This document shows, piece after piece, positions 31,853 through 41,829 of a stretch of 64,000 nucleotides of DNA. The translations under genes were made by a program, and so were the position numbers. Origin of the DNA: Spirochaetia bacterium (GTDB lineage: Bacteria; Spirochaetota; Spirochaetia; DSM-16054; Sediminispirochaetaceae); NCBI GenBank assembly GCA_034520965.1, contig JAXHMY010000002.1, forward strand, positions 320,001-384,000, given 5' to 3'. Each line of letters opens with the position of its first letter. Position 1 is the stretch's first letter. A model generated the notes under the pieces. It was not told the DNA's origin. It made no database searches and saw only the letters and a program-made list of their open reading frames with translations.

Positions 31853-33682
31853 GTGAACATGCAAGAACAAGCCCCCCTGCTGACCGAGGTAAGCGGGGGG
31901 ACTTCGATTGTATTTAAAAATAAGGAACTCTACAGCCGCAGTTCACCTCGCACGAGGGCCGAAGAACGGGCGGCGGCCTTTGAACTTGAAACCCACACAC
32001 TTTATATACTGGCCTCGCCACTGCTGTGGTACGGGGTCGCTGTGCTGCTTAAAAAGCTCCCGCCAAGCTCACACATTATCGCTGTTGAACAAGAGCCCCA
32101 ACTTGCCGCACTTAGCATCTCGCACCAGCCTCTTGAACTCAGCCGGAACGAGCAGCTGGACATAGGATTTTATCCGGAGGGAGGGCTTGAGGCTGAGGTT
32201 CCCGCTGGTAACAATCCTGAATCCGGCAGCGCTGAAACAGAAGGCCATGCAACTAGCAGCGCTGAAACCAAGGCTCCTGAATCCGGCGCCGCCGGAGACA
32301 TTTTTAAGTCGATACCGGCACTGGTTAAAAAACTCGGTATTGAACGCTTCCGCCGGGTGCGTTTGCTAACCCTGAACGGGGGGTATCGCCTGAACAGCCG
32401 CCGCTACACAGAGCTGGTACAACTTTTAGAAGAGGAGGTTCAGCAGTTCTGGCATAACAAGTATACCCTCATGCATATGCTGCCTCTCTGGATAAAGAAT
32501 ATTTTGCGCAACCTTGCCCTGTGTACCTTCCCGGCAGGAGCCTCGGACACGGTGCCCGAAACAAAACTATCTCACCTGGAAAGCTGTCCTCGGTTTGGTT
32601 TGCCGAAGACCTCCCTTCCGGTACTGGTTGCCGGAGCAGGCCCCAGCCTCGACACGCACATCGACTTTATCCGCCGCTATCGTGATACTATATATCTATT
32701 AGCCGTGGACACCGCCTACTCTGTGCTTCTGCAGCACGGTATTAAGCCCGACATGGTGGTGGTGCAGGAGTCTCAGTTCTACAATCTGTACGACTTCATT
32801 TACCAGCCCCGGATCGAAGCCGACATTCTGGCGGATATCAGCAGCTACCCCCAGGTCATTCGTCTCGGCGCCGGCAACATCTATTTATACGCCACCGAGT
32901 TTGTCCATACTCAGCTATTCACCCGTTTGCAAAAGGTCTCACTGCTGCCGCCCCGGATTCCCCCGCTGGGATCGGTTGGTACCACCGCTGTCCATGCCGC
33001 CCTCTCTATCACCGACTCAACGGTAATTCTGGCGGGCATCGATTTCGCCTTTCCCCCGGGCCAGACCCATGCCCGCGGCGCCCCCCGCCATCAGCTGAAC
33101 CTGCAGCACAGCCACCGCTTTCTGGGAATCGAGGATATGTGGCCTCGCACCACCAAGGGTGTCACACGCACTCCAGACGCCTCGGATGCCTTGGGAGTTC
33201 CACTGCGTACCACCCCAAGCCTAAGGCGCTATGCAGATAATTTTACGCGTGTATTTCATTCTTTGGATCGGATGCTCTTGTTAAAGCCCCGGGGCTTACC
33301 CTTAGGTATACCGGAGCTCACGCAAGCTGAACTTGCCCCTTATCTCTCGTCGGTAGAAAAACGGTTAATGCCCCATCCTTCTCCATCCCTGCCCGCCATG
33401 GGCGATAGTGAGGCTGTTGAGGGCTTTCTACAGCGCGAACAGAAGCTGCTGCATTCAATTTACACCCAAGGATTAGCCTTTCTTGAGGGACGGCTGTCGG
33501 AAGCGGAACTTTCGAAGCTGTCCTTGGATATACACCGCTGCGAGTATCTGTTTCTGCATTTCCCTGAAACAGGGCCAAGCCTGCGCAAGCTGGAGCCGGC
33601 CATGATAAAACGGATAATGGTTACTGCCGGCCACTACATTCGGGTGATCGACGAGGCGCTGGAGCTTATTCCTCGCTCTTAA
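31853..33682 (+). CDS. MAF_flag10/DUF115 (motility-associated factor-like) protein
   Basis: [23 protein letters not shown] and LAGIDFAF motifs. Confidence 0.8.
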
Positions 33683-35468
33683 GCACCGAGACAAAGGCCG
33701 ACTGGGGCAGCTCTACATTTCCAACCATCTTCATCCGCTTTTTACCCTCTTTCTGCTTTTCCAATAGCTTGCGCTTACGGCTGATATCTCCGCCGTAGCA
33801 CTTGGAGGTTACATCTTTGCGGAGGGCATTGATAGTCTCCCGGGCTATAACGGTATTCCCAATAGTTCCCTGCAGAGGAATTTTGAACTGCTGCCGGGGT
33901 ATCTCGTCCTTCAGTTTTCGGCAAATAGTACGGGCCCGGGAAACAGCATTATCCTTATGCACCAGCTGGCTCAAGGCATCCACCGGTTCGCCGTTTACCA
34001 GAATATCGAGTTTCACCAGCTCGGTTCGCTTATAAGGTCCGATTTCGTAATCGAAGGAGGCAAAGCCCCGGCTCACCGATTTAAGCTTGTCGTAAAAGTC
34101 GAAGAGTACCTCCGCCAGAGGCATCTCGTAGGTTACCTCAACCCGCTTTTCATCCAGATAGTTCATAGCCTTCTGAATGCCCCGTTTCTCCAGACAAATC
34201 TGAATTATGTTGCCCAGATATTCGGCGGGAGTGATAATGGCTGCGTCAATGTAGGGCTCTTCGGCATACTCAACCTTGGTGCTGTCCGGATACTCAAGGG
34301 GATTGTCCACGTCGATTACCTCGCCGCTGTTTCAGGTGAACCTTGTAGCGGACCGAAGGAGCGGTGAGAATAATTGAAAGGTCAAACTCCCGTTCAATCC
34401 GCTCCTGCACTACTTCCAGGTGCAGCAGCCCTAAAAAGCCGCAGCGAAAGCCGAAACCCAGGGCCGCGGAGGAATCCTTCTCGTAAATAAGGGAGGCGTC
34501 GTTCAGTTTCAGCTTATCGATGGCCGTTCGCAGCTCTTCGTAGTCGTTGGTGTCAATCGGATAAATGGAGGAGAAAACCACCGGTTTGACCTCTTTGAAG
34601 CCCTTCTGCGGTTCCGCACAGGGGTGCTTGTCGTTGGTCACGGTGTCACCAATACGAACATCTTCAATGTTTTTTATGCCGGCAATCAGATAGCCCACCT
34701 GTCCGGCATTAAGATTTTCACCCTTCTCCAGTCCCAGCCTGAAAATTCCGGTCTCTTCAATGGTATAGGTGGTGTTGTTCCACCACAGGCGAATCACGTC
34801 GCCGGCCTTCATAGTCCCTTCAAACACACGGACGTGAATAATTACCCCGCGGTAGGCATCATACTTGGAGTCGAATATCAGGGCTTTTAGGGGCTGGTCG
34901 TCGGTTCCGGAGGGGGCCGGTATATGATGAACAAGAGCCTCCAGCAGGTCATTGACCCCCTCCCCTGATTTTGCCGATACCAGCACCGCATCATCCGGGT
35001 CCAGCCCCAGGTCGTGCTCGATTTCTCGTTTTACCATCTCAATATCGGCACTGGGCAGGTCGATTTTATTAATCACCGGTATTATTTCCAGGTCTAGTTC
35101 AACGGCCATATACATATTGGCAAAGGTCTGCGCCTCAACCCCCTGGCTGGCGTCAATCAACAGCAGCGCCCCCTCGCAGGAGGAGATAGCCCGGGAAACT
35201 TCGTAGGCAAAATCAACATGTCCCGGAGTATCAACCAGGTTCAGTTCGTAGATATTCCCGTCATCCGCCTCATAGGGCATGGTAATTGCCTGGGATTTGA
35301 TGGTAATACCCCGCTCACGTTCAATATCCATATTATCGAGATATTGCTCCTTAAAATTACGGGCCTCAACTATCTTAGCCTTTTCGATAAACCTATCGGC
35401 TAGGGTAGATTTCCCATGGTCTATATGGGCTATTATGCAGAAGTTGCGGATAAATTCTTTAGGTGTAT
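33666..35468 (-). CDS. lepA: Elongation factor 4 LepA, 3' exon (first 4 nt ATGA at 37342-37339; frameshift ~34331)
   Basis: [32 protein letters not shown] and [25 protein letters not shown] motifs. Confidence 0.95.
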
Positions 35469-37338
35469 GTAGAGTAGACATACTATCGCCTTCCTTCATT
35501 AAGGGGGTTACGATAGCATGCCCCTCCCAGAACCGTACGTGCGCAACTAACGCATACGGCTCCTAGCACTAAACATTCGACCATTGCCAGATGTCTTTGC
35601 AAATTCTGCGGTCTTGGTATTAATTTCCATATCTTTTCAAACGTCTCCCAATTTATCTTGTGCTTCTGACCTCTCCGCCTTAGAGCCTTATACAGCGTGT
35701 ATCTGATGTATTTATAGAACTTGTACAGCCCTATTCAGATTTCCGTTGACCCCATAGTAATTGTAGTGCCCAACCAGTTTCCGGCTTAGTGCTCTCACAA
35801 TCTCCATGACAGGTCGATGCATATTCCATCTAATCCACTGCTTTGCGCTCTCGCGTTTAGCCTTCAGCTTCTTCTTGCTAGTGAGGTGCAGAACTGTGTA
35901 CTTACCAGTCCTTGTACTGGCATTTCACGTGGGTGAATCCAGAGATCAAATGTCTCCTTGGTTCCTTTGTACCTTCCAAATGGAATAATCCTTGTCTTCT
36001 CTTCGGCCACCGTTAGCTTGAACTTTGCAAGCCTTTTAAGCATCACCTCGTAGAATCTTTTCGCATCATCCTCGTACTGGAACAATACCACATAGTCATC
36101 CGCATAACGGTATAAGTATGCCTCACCCCTCAAACACCTTTTCACTACCTTCTCAAACCACAAGTCGAGTACGTAATGAAGATAGACGTTAGCCAGCACC
36201 GGCGAAATAAGCCCTCCTTGCGGAGTCCCCTTGTCGCTGTCGCTGACGTTCCCATTCTCCATGATCCCCGCCTTGAGAAATCTTACTACATAACGGATGA
36301 AATTCTTGTCCTGTATATCGTTCTCAAGAAACTTCACCAGCCATTCGTGGTCGACATTGTCAAAGAACCCTTTGATGTCGGCATCAAGAATATAATTTAC
36401 CTTCTTAGTCATGATCGTTTGGTTTATCTCCCGTATTACATCATGACAATTCCGATTCGGCCTGAACCCGTAGGAACAGTCCAGAAACCTCGGCTCGTAT
36501 ATCTCAGTCAGCACCTTCGCCATTATTCCCTGTACGAGTTTGTCCTCATACGCCGGGATTCCCAGCGGTCGTACCGTGCCATCCGTCTTGGGTATGTATG
36601 TTCTTCTCACCGCCTGCGGTCTGTAGCTGAAGGATTTCATCCGTCCAAGCAATGCATCCACATGCTCTTCCAGTCCGGACTCATAGCTCTCCTTCGTCGC
36701 TCCGTCTATGCCTGCGGCTTTTCCTCTGACCTGCGCCCGATGCTCTGCCTTCAGATTCTCCCTGTTGACGTAGTGCATGAGCGTCTGCATCTTTGCGTGA
36801 CTCTCCGACAACCTCCTCAACTCCCCATAGCTATTTTCCACTCTTTCAGAACCTCCAGTGTTCCTGGTGTTGGCCACAAGAAATACGTTTAATGCCCAGA
36901 CCCCTTCGCTCCACCGACTTTCACCGGTTTCATCGCTACTATGAGTCTGTCCGATTGCTGATGCCCCATACAGGTTTCTTGACTCCTCGCCTTTACGTCC
37001 CCTCTTAGTCCAACGGACAGGACATCAGCCCTCCCAGGTACGCTTGATCTACCTTGTGTGCTCGCCATGCTCTCAGACCCCGTTGGGTTCTCTGCACTCT
37101 CGCCTTTTTCCGAGCGCTTCTTGCTGGTTGCTGTCATATGAAAAACATCACCACCCAATCTTTATACTAACGAGGCTCAATCACGTTCAACCTTTCGGCT
37201 TATGGCTCTCACACTCCTTTGCCTACGCTTAAACCTCACCTCACGGCTTCGGCTCCAAGGCTAAGTACCGGCTGTTGGCTAGACTTTACCGGACAGGGTG
37301 TCTCACCCTGCTATATATCAAACGCCGAACTGGCGCAC
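35469..37338 (-). mobile_element. Group II intron (1870 nt) inserted after nt 4 of lepA
   Basis: 5' GTGCG at 37338; domain V GAGCCGTATGCG...CACGTACGGTTC; domain VI with bulged A ending CTACTCTAC at 35469; RT ORF inside; exon ligation restores ATG AAT ACA CCT. Confidence 0.92.
35569..36841 (-). CDS. ltrA: Group II intron reverse transcriptase/maturase, no endonuclease domain (3' frameshifts)
   Basis: RPLGIP, SYGFRP, DADIKGFFD, GTPQGG and YADD motifs; X domain GHYNYYGV in a shifted frame; GTG 36841 with GGAGGT RBS. Confidence 0.9.
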
Positions 37339-37349
37339 TCATTGGGTTT

Positions 37350-37378
37350 ACTATAGCTTAATATTCGATCTTCATCAA
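37350..37378 (-). promoter_or_regulatory. lepA promoter (leaderless spacing)
   Basis: TTGATG-17-TATAGT, 7 nt before ATG 37342; no SD sequence. Confidence 0.6.
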
Positions 37379-37395
37379 CAAAGCCGGCCCATTAA

Positions 37396-37533
37396 CAGCG
37401 ATTCTCAATTTGGAAGTCTTCTGACTTCCAAATTGAATTCACATGCAAATGCTTGAAATTTTTATATATCTTAACTTTGGAGGCATTCTCAATTTGGATA
37501 GCGTAATTACACTATCCAAATTGAGAATTGCTG
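37396..37533. mobile_element. MITE copy 2 (diverged)
   Basis: 19-bp TIR cagcgattctcaatttgga/tccaaattgagaattgctg (1 mismatch); perfect 9-bp duplication gcccattaa. Confidence 0.85.
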
Positions 37534-37552
37534 GCCCATTAAAGAAAGAGTG

Positions 37553-39484
37553 TCAGTCTGTATAGGTGTCATCAAGCACCTCGCGTACCACTTTGACAAA
37601 AACTTCGGGTGAGAAAGGTTTGGATATAAAGGGAAATTCAAAATCCGACCCCAAATCAGACTCGCTGCCCTCTGTCTGCGCGGAGTTGTGCTTATGAGGG
37701 TATCCCGACATGTAGATAACCTTGGTGCTGGGGCGTAGTTCGAGAAAATGTTTCGAAAGCTCTTCTCCGCCCATTCGCGGCATAACCAAATCAGTAACCA
37801 GCACATCAAACTTATGCTCCTCGCTCCTGGCCAACTCTAAAGCTGTTTCAGGGCCGTCCGCTAAATACACGGTATATCCGTACAACTTCAAAATACGCTC
37901 AACGAGGTTTCGAAGACTCTTTTCGTCTTCCACCACTAGTACCGTTTCCGTTCCGGAGTAAGAGGGTTCCATACCTCTCTTACGCGTAGGGGCTTTCTCG
38001 GTACTGCGATACAAGGGCAAAAGGATCCAAAAGGTCGAGCCCTCATTGGGCTCCGTTTCAACCTGCAGATACCCATTGCTCTGCTTTACGATTCCGTACA
38101 CGGTTGAGAGACCGAGTCCGGTGCCCTTCTCTTCCGACTTAGTAGTAAAAAAAGGTTCAAATATCATCTTAAGCATATGAGACTCAATTCCCACCCCAGT
38201 ATCTCGTACCGCGGCGCATACATAATTTCCCGGAGGTACTTTTCCCATCGGTGAGGGTTCCGGACTATCAACTTGATAATTCGTAGTTCGGATTGTGATG
38301 CGCCCCCCCTGGGCCATAGCATCCCGGGCATTTACAATCAAATTCATCAGCACCTGCTCAATTTGTCCGGGATCTACCCATACTGTATCCGGATCAGCGC
38401 TTAAGTTAAGGTACATTCCAAATTCTTCGGTAACCAAACGGCGCATCATTTTTTCAAGATTATGAATCAGTTCGTTCATATGAACTTGTTTTGGTTTTAG
38501 AATCTGCCTGCGACTGAAGGCCAGCAGCTGCCGAGTAAGGGTCGAAGCCCGTTTGGCAGCCTCTTGGATGCCCGACACCTCATTTTCAATAGCCGTATCC
38601 TGCTTCACAAGCTTTTCTTGAACAATAGTACTGTAGCCAAGAATGACCGTGAGGATATTGTTAAAGTCGTGGGCTACCCCGCCCGCAAGCCGGCCAACTG
38701 CCTCCAGTTTTTGCGCCTGCCGCAGCTGCTGTTCGAGGTTTTTACGGGTGCTAATATCTATAAGGTAGCCGTTTATCTCTGTAATAGCGTCGCTTTCATC
38801 GGTATCTGCAACAACATTAGCCAGCAAATTCAATTTACTGCCGTCGGCGCGCAGCAAATCCAGCTCATGCAGAACTAAACGCTTATGCTGCTTAAGCTGC
38901 TTCCAGAAATCAGCTGCCTGACTTTCATCGGGAAAGCGGGAATTTAAGTAAGTACCCTCGACTTCAGCCGCATTTTTAAACCCGAAATAATCTACAAAGG
39001 AGTGATTACAGGCTAAAAAAACGCCCTGAGCATCGGCTACAAAATCTGCGGATACATCTTCCTCAAACAGCCGGCGGTAACGCTCCTCGCTTTCCTGTAG
39101 TTGAGTTTCAAGTTTGTGACGAAACAGGGCCATTTCGATATTAGTACGCAGTTCCCTCTCTTCGAAGGGTTTTATAATATAACCGAAGGGTTCAATGAAC
39201 TTAGCCCGTTCGATCGTTTTTTCGTCGGCATAAGCGGTAAGTATGATAACCGGCACACGGAATTGTTCACGAATTATCTGAGCAGCTTCGATACCATCCA
39301 TCTTACCCTGAAGACGGATGTCCATCAGTACTAAATCGGGTGCTTCAGTTTTGAATTGAGAAATAGCTTCTTCACCCGACGCATGGGAGCCTACTACTTT
39401 GTATCCGAAGGACTCTAAATGCCGACGAATATCAAGAGCTACAACCCCTTCGTCTTCTACAATTTGTACTTTAAGCTGGGCCAT
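37553..39484 (-). CDS. Hybrid histidine kinase REC-PAS-HisKA-HATPase-REC
   Basis: VEDE/LMDI receiver, AHDFNN, GTGLGL, C-terminal receiver. Confidence 0.92.
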   Translation of the reverse strand: MAQLKVQIVEDEGVVALDIRRHLESFGYKVVGSHASGEEAISQFKTEAPDLVLMDIRLQGKMDGIEAAQIIREQFRVPVIILTAYADEKTIERAKFIEPFGYIIKPFEERELRTNIEMALFRHKLETQLQESEERYRRLFEEDVSADFVADAQGVFLACNHSFVDYFGFKNAAEVEGTYLNSRFPDESQAADFWKQLKQHKRLVLHELDLLRADGSKLNLLANVVADTDESDAITEINGYLIDISTRKNLEQQLRQAQKLEAVGRLAGGVAHDFNNILTVILGYSTIVQEKLVKQDTAIENEVSGIQEAAKRASTLTRQLLAFSRRQILKPKQVHMNELIHNLEKMMRRLVTEEFGMYLNLSADPDTVWVDPGQIEQVLMNLIVNARDAMAQGGRITIRTTNYQVDSPEPSPMGKVPPGNYVCAAVRDTGVGIESHMLKMIFEPFFTTKSEEKGTGLGLSTVYGIVKQSNGYLQVETEPNEGSTFWILLPLYRSTEKAPTRKRGMEPSYSGTETVLVVEDEKSLRNLVERILKLYGYTVYLADGPETALELARSEEHKFDVLVTDLVMPRMGGEELSKHFLELRPSTKVIYMSGYPHKHNSAQTEGSESDLGSDFEFPFISKPFSPEVFVKVVREVLDDTYTD

Positions 39485-39964: not shown

Positions 39965-41829
39965 CTAAGGTGCTCCTGCATTGGCTTCCCTTAACTCCTG
40001 TAGAATTTTCTGTACCTTCGCGCCATTTTTGCTTCGACAAGCCATCATAAGCTTGAACAGACGTCCGGAGGTATCCTGATCCTGGATCTGTTGAGCAATT
40101 TTTCGAATCCGCTGTGCCTCCTCCTCAAGCTGGTCATACTCGGTGCTCTGTAAATTCTCTGCATCCACTGTATATAAACCCGAGAGCAGATCCTGCAGCT
40201 CGCCAAGCATATATGCTTGCTTGTGCTCTTTCTGCTGCTCCTCTTGCGGATTCTTCTGTGGTGCCTCCTGTGGCACAATGAGTTGTCTCAAATAGAGAGT
40301 GTGTGCGGCGTCCGGCCACAGCTCGTCTGCAGCGCCCATCAATAGATGATTCAGCTGCTTCAGCAATTTACGTCTGAGGATAGGACTATACAAGTAAGTG
40401 GCGGCAGGGTCTTCCTGCACATTTTTCCGGCTGCTGCGGACAAGATATAACAGTCTCGTTGGAGAAACGCCCATCTCTCTGAGGCTTTTTCCGATTCTAT
40501 GGCATACGGTGAGGGTATCCTCAATCACAAATAGACTCCCGGAGGCTAGCTTGTATTCACCTGATCTGTCAGGGATAGTAAGGGGTACCCCCCAAGTCTG
40601 AAATTGGCGCCGTCGTATTTCGGTGGTGAAAGAATTTGAACTTAAATAAAACACCGGGGGAGCGCTGCGGAAATCCGGAGAATCTAAAACCTCTCTGTCA
40701 TCAAGGTCTCCAGGTTCAAGCTGCAGCCTAAAGGTAAACTCGCTCCCTTCACCTACGGTCGAGGAAAAGTCGATGGTACCGCCCATAAGGTGAATCGTAT
40801 CATTCACAATCGCCAAACCCAATCCGGCTCCATCATGGGCACGGGTAGAGGTACTGTCCACCTGATGAAATGATTTAAACACATTCTGCCGTTCCGATTC
40901 GGGAATTCCGCATCCGGTATCACGAATCCGACCGGCTAGAACTATTTTATCTTTGTGTACCTCATCAGGTTCGGTTTTTACCTTCAAATGCACCCAGCCA
41001 GTGTTCGGTCAAATTTAACAGCGTTACTCAGCAGGTTTACCAGTACTTGCTCTACTTTGTCCGAATCACCGTGAAGATGAAAACGGCTAGTTTCATCTAT
41101 CTCAATATATACACCCAAGTTCTTCTTCTGTATCTGAGTCCAGAGTTTGTTTATCGAATTCTCGAATAGCTCGTCCAGATAAAAATCATGTGTATTGATA
41201 ACAACCTTACCCGCTTCTACTCTAGAAAACTCTAGGAGTGAATCGATCATGGTCAAAAGGTTCCTCCCAGAGCTCTCTATAATCTGCAAATACTCCTTCT
41301 GCTCCTCGGGCTCATTGGTTTTTTGTGCCAACTGGGTCATCCCAAGGATACTGTTCAGGGGGGTTCGAAGTTCATGACTCACATTCGCTAAAAAGCCACT
41401 TTTCGCCCGGCTTCCCGCTTCGGCTTTTTCTTTTGCCGCTATCAACTCTTGCTCAATTTTGTATTTATACAAGGCCATTTCAATGGTGGAGTAAATCTCC
41501 CGTTCCTGAAAAGGTTTAAGAATATATCCGAAGGGTTCGGTTACCTTCGCCCGGGCTAGGGTGGTTTCATCGGAATAGGCGGTAATATAAATTACGGGAG
41601 TCCCTAGGGTACTTTTGATGCGTTCAGCAGCCTGGATACCATCCATATTCCCCTTAAGGTGAATATCCATCAGGATCAGATCCGGTTTCTCTTGTTCTGC
41701 CTTCGTTACGGCATCTTCTCCCGACAGAACATGCTCTATTACCGAATACCCAAGCGCATTGAGCCGTCGCTCCATATCCATAGCCACAATGCTTTCATCT
41801 TCTACGAGTAAAATTCGTACGGATGCCAT
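39965..41829 (-). CDS. Hybrid histidine kinase REC-HisKA-HATPase with degenerate C-terminal domains (frameshift ~41000)
   Basis: SHELRTPL, NLLSNAVKF, DTGCGI and GAGLGL motifs across ORFs 40984-41829 and 39965-40993. Confidence 0.85.

Follow-up and report, generated by a model that had tools for sequence, protein, structure and literature searches.

The 64,000-nt stretch of a Spirochaetia bacterium genome analysed here (the window; positions 320,001 to 384,000 of contig JAXHMY010000002.1) carries a group II intron at the start codon of lepA, the gene for EF-4 (Table 1). The intron directly follows the sequence ATGA, begins with GTGCG at 37338 and ends with CTACTCTAC at 35469, where the exon continues as ATACACCTAAAG. 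It matched the Rfam models RF02005 (domains I-IV; 37303-37068, 121 bits) and RF00029 (domains V-VI; 35564-35469, 48 bits). Joining the exons produced an in-frame LepA N-terminus, MNTPK..., and the downstream protein is LepA (TIGR01393). For comparison, 41 genomes were searched, of which 39 had a lepA match, and the loci of 29 relatives were fetched. The lepA start was free of the intron in all 29, and six of the seven same-genus loci began with MNTPK. The initial annotation, made from the sequence alone, had proposed a group II intron at the lepA start codon and a clean LepA N-terminus after exon joining, and had suggested checking the 5' ends of lepA in intron-free relatives; the sequence, the Rfam matches, the joined exons and these relatives bear it out on each point. 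It made no mention of the promoter immediately ahead of the ATG, of the Shine-Dalgarno and ATG within domain VI, or of the frameshifts that this copy shows in its reverse transcriptase gene and in lepA.

Table 1. Features of the lepA intron locus, in window coordinates
Feature	Position	Strand	Basis or remark
Predicted sigma-70 -35 hexamer of lepA, TTGATG	37373..37378	-	Promoter scan; hexamer and spacing shared by the lepA loci of the same genus
Predicted -10 box TATAGT, also intron-binding site 2 (IBS2)	37350..37355	-	Conservation; five of six bases pair with exon-binding site 2 (EBS2)
lepA's own start codon with the next base (ATGA), IBS1; predicted to make up nearly all of the transcribed 5' exon	37339..37342	-	Transcription start from promoter geometry
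Group II intron, class E (IIE), 1,870 nt	35469..37338	-	Sequence, Rfam, other copies, protein tree
EBS2 AGUAUA, domain I bulge	37163..37168	-	Complementary to TATACT, near-complementary to TATAGT; placed by covariation with relatives' flanks
EBS1 UCAUAU, domain Id3 loop	37136..37141	-	UCAU pairs with ATGA
Reverse transcriptase (RT)/maturase, YADD, no endonuclease domain	35569..36877	-	Frameshifted after about codon 312
Domain V (catalytic), 5-nt terminal loop	35530..35564	-	Rfam, fold
Extended domain VI, 61 nt versus 37-41 in plain relatives	35469..35529	-	Bulged A at 35475, 7 nt from the 3' end
Shine-Dalgarno (SD)-like GAAGGAAGG in domain VI	35489..35497	-	-8.6 kcal/mol with the 16S tail of this genome; part of it is paired in the fold
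In-frame ATG in domain VI	35479..35481	-	7 nt behind the SD, 13 nt ahead of the 3' splice site
lepA (EF-4) 3' exon	33666..35468	-	One frameshift near 34330

Two further copies in the same genome, with different flanks, marked the same intron boundaries independently. The nearest named intron, at 92%, comes from a Spirochaetaceae metagenome-assembled genome. No copy was found in the 16 same-family genomes searched, whose assemblies are mostly fragmented; the intron DNA had zero matches in E. coli genomes, and its 5' end was unmatched in viral contigs. Four viral loci were distantly similar, at 41-48%. Sequencing runs were examined as contigs, covering four of the 16 DNA runs and four of the six RNA runs listed. 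The boundaries are likewise marked by exact 3'-5' intron joints in RNA runs (below) and by exon-exon joints omitting exactly 1,870 nt; the latter were present in two of the four DNA runs, with a short side of 30 nt in X1, which is marginal, and of 40 nt in X14. Run X1 also contained intron-bearing pieces, and the two kinds of contig together suggest that the lepA insertion is recent or polymorphic.

By its protein and its RNA features, the intron is a class E (IIE) element. Class E introns have no C-terminal endonuclease domain, and in the intact 435-aa protein of another copy (C1) Pfam detected RVT_1 alone at E ≤ 1, the endonuclease domain being absent. Other features of the class are an alpha' element capping a stem-loop of DId3 and hydrolytic self-splicing in vitro. 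The protein was 46.7% identical to a class E reference versus 31% to the CL1A reference. In the protein tree, which held one reference each for CL1A (a plasmid intron), B and F, two each for ML and E, and none for D, g1 or g6, the class E reference nested among the relatives at ultrafast bootstrap (UFBoot) 99, with CL1A, B, F and ML outside. All six plasmid records looked up are labelled class E at the matched place in Miura et al. 2022 (PMC8919778, Table 3). The intron shares with class E, as portrayed in the portions consulted, an RT/maturase without endonuclease and EBS1 and EBS2 pairings (PMC3753933, PMC8919778), as well as a 5-nt domain V loop and a 7-nt spacer from the branch A to the 3' splice site (PMC3753933, PMC9294222). 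It differs from class E as described there (PMC3753933) in that EBS2 is matched to a -10 box and EBS1 to a start codon, and in that an extended domain VI holds an SD and an ATG.

The sequence upstream of lepA has the layout TTGATG-N17-TATAGT-N7-ATG. A promoter scan of 35300-37620 returned one promoter-like match versus 3.5 expected from shuffles, so that the scan alone is non-significant. All 14 same-family loci have TATAGT 7-8 nt ahead of the lepA ATG, 22 of the 29 relatives have a -10-like box, and an SD is missing from those loci. Since sigma-70 geometry sets the transcription start relative to the -10 box, the position of TATAGT would place the start at the ATG or one base before it, and lepA is thus predicted to be leaderless. 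Leaderless mRNAs are common in Leptospira, according to the part of the source consulted (PMC5243855). A Clostridia class E intron of another clade (L055; position 1888 and 3' flank) also lies at lepA, in the 5' leader just behind the -10 box and upstream of that gene's own SD. Just upstream of the lepA promoter in the window lies a 163-nt palindromic repeat (37385-37547) resembling a miniature inverted-repeat transposable element; it is missing from the relatives' alleles, and BLAST found 81 pieces of it in the genome, many near full length.

The guide sequences were placed by covariation across a family set of 184 loci, comprising the best 80 of 146 genome matches, the best 80 of 536 metagenome matches, 21 class matches and the three copies of this genome. 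A 5' end was parsed for 138 loci and a 3' end for 146, with seven 3' ends and two 5' ends corrected by hand; the row of L138 in the EBS comparison is misaligned. Family-wide, covariation links the loop of domain Id3 to the final 4-8 bases of the flank, which fixes EBS1 and the boundaries. In the sub-lineage of this intron EBS1 has the form UCAU(A/G)U: UCAUG occurs in the C1 and G078 copies, both behind GCATGA (UCAUGU in C1), and the C3 copy pairs UCAUAU with ATATGA. EBS2 corresponds to the bulge ahead of the Id3 loop. The EBS2-IBS2 run averaged 4.85 bp over 110 pairs versus 4.08 ± 0.09 (maximum 4.34) in 500 partner shuffles, and the bulge held TAT[AG] in 34 of 45 introns with a -10-box flank versus 12 of 65 others. 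Flank and EBS2 changed in compensatory fashion (TATACT/AGUAU, TGTAAT/AUUACG, TACAAT/UUGUG, TATGC/GCAUG), and in one G059 copy EBS2 reads ACUAUA, which is fully complementary to TATAGT. Across the family, 48 of 114 distinct flanks had a box at a distance of 9-13 nt upstream, with a peak at 10 nt; the mean of 36 control windows was 8.6% and their maximum 17.8%. Other clades turn the same guides to repeats or other introns.

Another clade, of 22 proteins (support 100; L040-L042, L048, L049, L051-L059, L065, L066, L071-L073, L076, L078, L079) has a 5' insertion of ~60 nt, an AG 3' end and a short domain VI, and inserts about 9-10 nt behind extended -10 boxes with a variable IBS1. A Bacillaceae clade (L033, L036, L045, L060-L063), with the 5' end GAGCG, inserts into a palindromic repeat between CTCCTG and CGGGAG.

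Within the sub-lineage, 16 insertion sites were available: the three of this genome, two from G078, L001, L138 (L139 being the same site) and nine 5' ends from G059, G062 and G110. The last nine were found with a 24-nt pattern, and two of them are remnants with little further likeness. All 16 sites end in RTGR (R, purine), as ATGA in 11, ATGG in four and GTGA in one. A -10-like box ended 9-11 nt before the intron in 13 of the 16, versus 3.1% of such tetramers in this genome (G000). The three genomic copies are all preceded by TATAGT-N6/7-ATGA, a rare arrangement: only 70 of 28,358 genomic ATGA sites have TATA[ACG]T at that spacing. These motif sites open at least 100 codons in 31 of 70 cases, versus 364 of 2,321 random ATGA, and lie at the 5' end of an open reading frame (ORF) in 21 of 70.

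The genes behind the insertions are diverse. Nine 3' exons were usable, leaving aside L136, where a second intron follows, and L001, which has no exon. Four opened a long frame from the ATG in domain VI, namely C1 (a LuxR-type response regulator), C2 (lepA), and L128 and L138 (both unclassified long ORFs). The remaining five comprised C3, located within a gene but not in its frame; L238 and L241, upstream of genes; L244, with no clear gene; and L112, out of frame with a 188-codon ORF. Since a long gene opens at only four of the nine, what the intron targets is a DNA motif rather than genes in general or lepA in particular: judged from these sites, the intron reads a motif that is often, and not always, a leaderless start. 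The suggestion in the initial annotation that the intron targets start codons thus holds in part. The bias for start codons among the closest homologs, which it had proposed to tabulate, is complete in that every site ends in ATGA, ATGG or GTGA, and the target is a -10 box plus a start codon, not the start codon alone. Housekeeping genes as such are not the target, lepA being hit once and the other sites being a response regulator, unclassified ORFs, a gene interior, leaders and non-coding DNA. In the C3 copy (G000:C3:55877-59458; L233/L245), the 5' part is itself split by 3.6 kb of inserted DNA, which shows terminal inverted repeats, transposase-like ORFs and a duplication of 11 nt and which we take to be IS66-like.

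Domain VI ends in ATG TCT ACT CTA C, 13 nt whose phase equals that of ATG A, so that reading from this ATG into the exon gives MSTLHTPK.... It is predicted to fold into a stem whose bulged A lies 7 nt before the end. The position of the ATG was compared with the insertion phase in 104 distinct complete introns. Where the intron follows ATGN, an SD and an ATG at -13 occurred in 11 of 17 cases and at -3 in none; where it follows ATG directly, they occurred at -3, the intron itself ending in ATG, in four of seven and at -13 in none. The remaining 80 introns had an ATG at -13 in three cases and at -3 in none. The phase-matched cases are spread over about five separate branches. A larger group inserts in or after the host SD and carries in domain VI an SD and no ATG. 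Counting an ORF of 60 codons, or one open to the contig end, a start codon was found within -15 to +20 in 43 of 55 introns with a long, SD-bearing domain VI, in none of eight with a long SD-less one and in 13 of 51 with a short one. The SD and in-phase ATG of domain VI are predicted to allow translation of the host gene even from unspliced RNA. The RT stop codon lies 87 nt ahead of the domain VI ATG, and translational coupling between the two is conceivable. The statement in the initial annotation that ORF callers mis-assign the lepA start may be right only in part: a mechanical ORF lister does start lepA inside domain VI, at 35499, but the in-intron ATG at 35481 has its own SD and may be used.

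Two further domain VI arrangements were observed. In SD-only introns (L003, L006, L013, L015, L021-L024, L140, L145, L146, L150, L159, L160, L162 and others), GTCGAG stands behind the SD and is complementary to the last six intron bases, CTCGAC; the alternative hairpin would place the SD beside the exon start codon. In L007, L147, L149, L154, L170 and L214, the last three intron bases are ATG, not the usual AY, and domain VI holds an SD; the four introns ending in ATG with known flanks sit right behind an SD-led ATG.

Evidence of activity came from the sequencing runs. Exact joints of the intron's 3' end to its 5' end (35469 to 37338) were present in two of the four RNA runs, X16 and X19, from two studies. 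The contigs represent close relatives (about 95-98% alike), at depths of 18.8 and 30.6, and the joints do not tell the splicing pathway. They likely reflect excision of these relatives in vivo at the predicted boundaries, as circles; perfect head-to-tail circles in vivo are described for Ll.LtrB in the part of the source consulted (PMC6248898). Alternatively, the joints could be tandem DNA copies, which exist in relatives' contigs (L176, L136), or library artefacts; no such joint was listed in the four DNA runs, which come from other samples. The joints are unlikely to have arisen by self-homing at the intron's 3' terminus, because UCAU does not pair with CUCUAC. The tandem copies are head-to-tail pairs in metagenome contigs, one exact and one with a 7-nt spacer ending in ATGA. 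Exon-exon joints in RNA runs X17 and X19 were considered as spliced lepA mRNA and rejected: they reach 46 nt upstream through the promoter, match the intron-free relative L082 and recur in DNA runs X1 and X14, and we read them as intron-free alleles.

We propose that the intron is a class E retroelement with EBS2 set against the sigma-70 -10 box and EBS1 against ATGA, that it likely homes by base pairing to the first transcribed bases, and that the SD and in-phase ATG of domain VI form a predicted spare start; taken as a whole, we consider this account reasonably probable. Its parts differ in strength. At the level of sequence, the comparisons demonstrate the target motif (-10 box, 5-7 nt, RTGR), the guide/target complementarity with covariation, the boundaries, and the sequence and phase of the SD and ATG; the targeting they support well. 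In outline, the ribonucleoprotein would reverse-splice into the sense strand at about +4/+5 through EBS1 and EBS2 pairing. Without an endonuclease, priming would occur at the replication fork, as is established for other endonuclease-minus introns. Having no promoter of its own, the intron would depend on the captured one for its transcription, the 5' exon being only 4-5 nt long, and IBS2 would be untranscribed and used on DNA only. This would be tolerated because EBS2-IBS2 pairing is dispensable for IIE splicing in vitro and has been proposed to serve homing, as stated in the portion consulted of Nagy et al. 2013 (PMC3753933). The 3'-5' joints in RNA partly show the next step, excision of close relatives in vivo at these boundaries. 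Splicing would restore a leaderless MNTPK... mRNA with the 5' end (A)ATGAATACACC. On unspliced or mis-spliced RNA, ribosomes could use the start in domain VI whenever that domain is unfolded, and the insertion would thereby be tolerated.

A wider version of this account is possible, although we judge it to fall somewhat short of probable. A class E lineage may read the -10 box with EBS2, land at transcription starts and splice with a triphosphorylated 5' exon of 4-5 nt. Domain VI might then have two states, folded for splicing and unfolded as a ribosome-binding site that makes a leaderless gene SD-led, and sub-lineages might have re-tuned domain VI to the signal that the insertion separated (nothing, SD, or SD and ATG in phase 0 or 1).

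Several observations weigh against the proposal. The box is missing at three of the 16 sub-lineage sites, and EBS2 pairs with TATAGT at only five of six bases here and with other sites at four of six. Sites and introns are kin, so that the counts are non-independent and overstate independence. Spliced lepA mRNA was not seen among the four RNA runs examined. The remaining points concern the spare start. In the predicted fold of domain VI, the SD and ATG are paired, the unpaired probability of the ATG being 0.0. One or two changes suffice to turn the plain ending of domain VI into one with an ATG at -13, and such an ATG also occurs in introns without ATG targets, including the sister intron L196 and L071 and L072. 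Six of the 17 introns behind ATGN have no spare start. With five of nine sites (C3, L112, L238, L241, L244) giving no long frame from the domain VI ATG, such a start would be useless at over half of them. These last points would be expected if the EBS-paired targeting of promoter and start is real and the SD and ATG are by-products of a purine-rich loop and a conserved stem, lepA being expressed only after splicing. What speaks for a function is that the ATG follows the insertion phase on separate branches, at -13 behind ATGN and at -3 behind ATG, and that an SD-only domain VI accompanies insertion in or just behind the host SD, with the exon start codon 1-11 nt on. We regard a by-product as unlikely.

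The promoters might also be found through the open RNA polymerase complex, by its single-stranded DNA around -11 to +2 or by protein contact, with EBS2 merely adapted to them. Consistent with this, T1, A2 and T6 of the -10 box are kept, positions 3 and 5 are variable and do not match EBS2, the spacing varies over 9-11 nt, and the GTGCGAGCTG clade retains the -10 box with a very variable IBS1. However, the C3 copy lies inside a coding region, at a motif without a clear -35; EBS2 covaries with non-promoter targets in sister clades, so that plain pairing explains the family; and the in-frame rate of insertions, four of nine, equals that of all motif sites. We regard recognition through the polymerase as improbable. 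Still weaker is the notion of broad targeting, from which insertions at promoters and starts survive selection as expressed and harmless. Only surviving copies are visible, and their kinship adds to this, but EBS1 is UCAU and the RTGR ending extends to out-of-frame and non-genic sites, which rescue selection would not favour; we give this notion very little credence.

The initial annotation had linked the intron to the lineage of the Azotobacter groEL intron, and this link fails. In the part of Gomes et al. 2025 consulted (PMC12584367), the defining features of the Avi.groEL lineage are IIB1 type, a CL1 protein with an endonuclease and a 5'-subterminal insertion of 300-700 nt where domain I has its base, and the way in which this start/stop-codon lineage finds its targets is called unknown. 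Membership in it would fit the insertion one base behind the start codon of a housekeeping gene, but is scarcely credible for a protein that groups with class E and has no endonuclease, in an intron with a 7-nt branch spacer versus 6 in bacterial IIB1 (PMC9294222, portion consulted) and no 5'-subterminal insertion, RF02005 starting 35 nt and the RT gene 461 nt from the 5' end. As two features of that lineage are missing, the intron works like it and is not a member. The likeness to Avi.groEL and EcKTE56.groEL, as far as the cited part of PMC12584367 describes them, lies in the use of a conserved gene's translation signal as insertion site and in a host protein that survives without splicing, there via a new stop codon. 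Here, in contrast, the RT lineage is another one, endonuclease and subdomain Ia are absent, the target genes are many and unrelated, a promoter is read, and a start rather than a stop is supplied. No groEL-type intron was found for direct comparison; one chromosomal E. coli match examined lies elsewhere.

Group IIC introns behind terminators and IIC-attC introns, as described in the portions consulted of PMC4424553 and PMC3001079, resemble the present intron in targeting a recurring expression signal rather than one homing site. IIC-attC introns supply outward promoters for the next gene (Leon et al. 2010, PMC3001079, in part), to which the spare start would be comparable by analogy only. In the part of PMC4424553 consulted, IIC introns read a DNA hairpin and are without EBS2, whereas here a linear EBS2 pairing is predicted, insertion is at a transcription start, and what the intron supplies is a signal for translation. 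The intron is not of group IIC, as EBS2 is present, and no terminator-like site was found in 35300-37620.

For the targets of bacterial group II introns, the consulted part of a review (PMC4424553) gives three specificities, namely homing sites, terminators and attC sites, with the start/stop-codon lineage as an unexplained addition; the wider version of the account, if true, would make a fourth. Here the targeting rule is readable from sequence, as an anti-Pribnow EBS2 plus an anti-AUG EBS1. If the proposal is true, the class E EBS2 pairing, dispensable for splicing, would gain a role. It would also show how a promoter-less retroelement gains a promoter and spares the host gene, bear on the minimal 5' exon for splicing, and make insertion sites markers of promoters and leaderless starts in uncultured bacteria. 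The literature searched held nothing on class E introns targeting promoters or leaderless genes, on reading of the -10 box, or on an SD or ATG in domain VI; Michel et al. 2007, Toro et al. 2002 and Simon et al. 2008, outside this scope, may bear on novelty. Searches by terms in the portions consulted of Waldern 2020 (PMC7306698), Costa 2022 (PMC9294222) and Zimmerly and Semper 2015 (PMC4424553) found no mention of such targeting.

Finally, the lepA-inserted copy has several indels in its RT gene and one in lepA. Contigs of run X1 contradict three of the RT indels, and this, together with the intact C1 protein, makes assembly error the likely cause of the RT and lepA frameshifts. The extra base in lepA is missing in X14 contigs of a relative, and most relatives have open lepA frames of 604-643 aa; X1 does not cover the position. 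The lepA frameshift is thus probably an assembly error. Further genes in the window seem split by single frameshifts (39965-41829, 33666-35468), which fits an indel-prone assembly.

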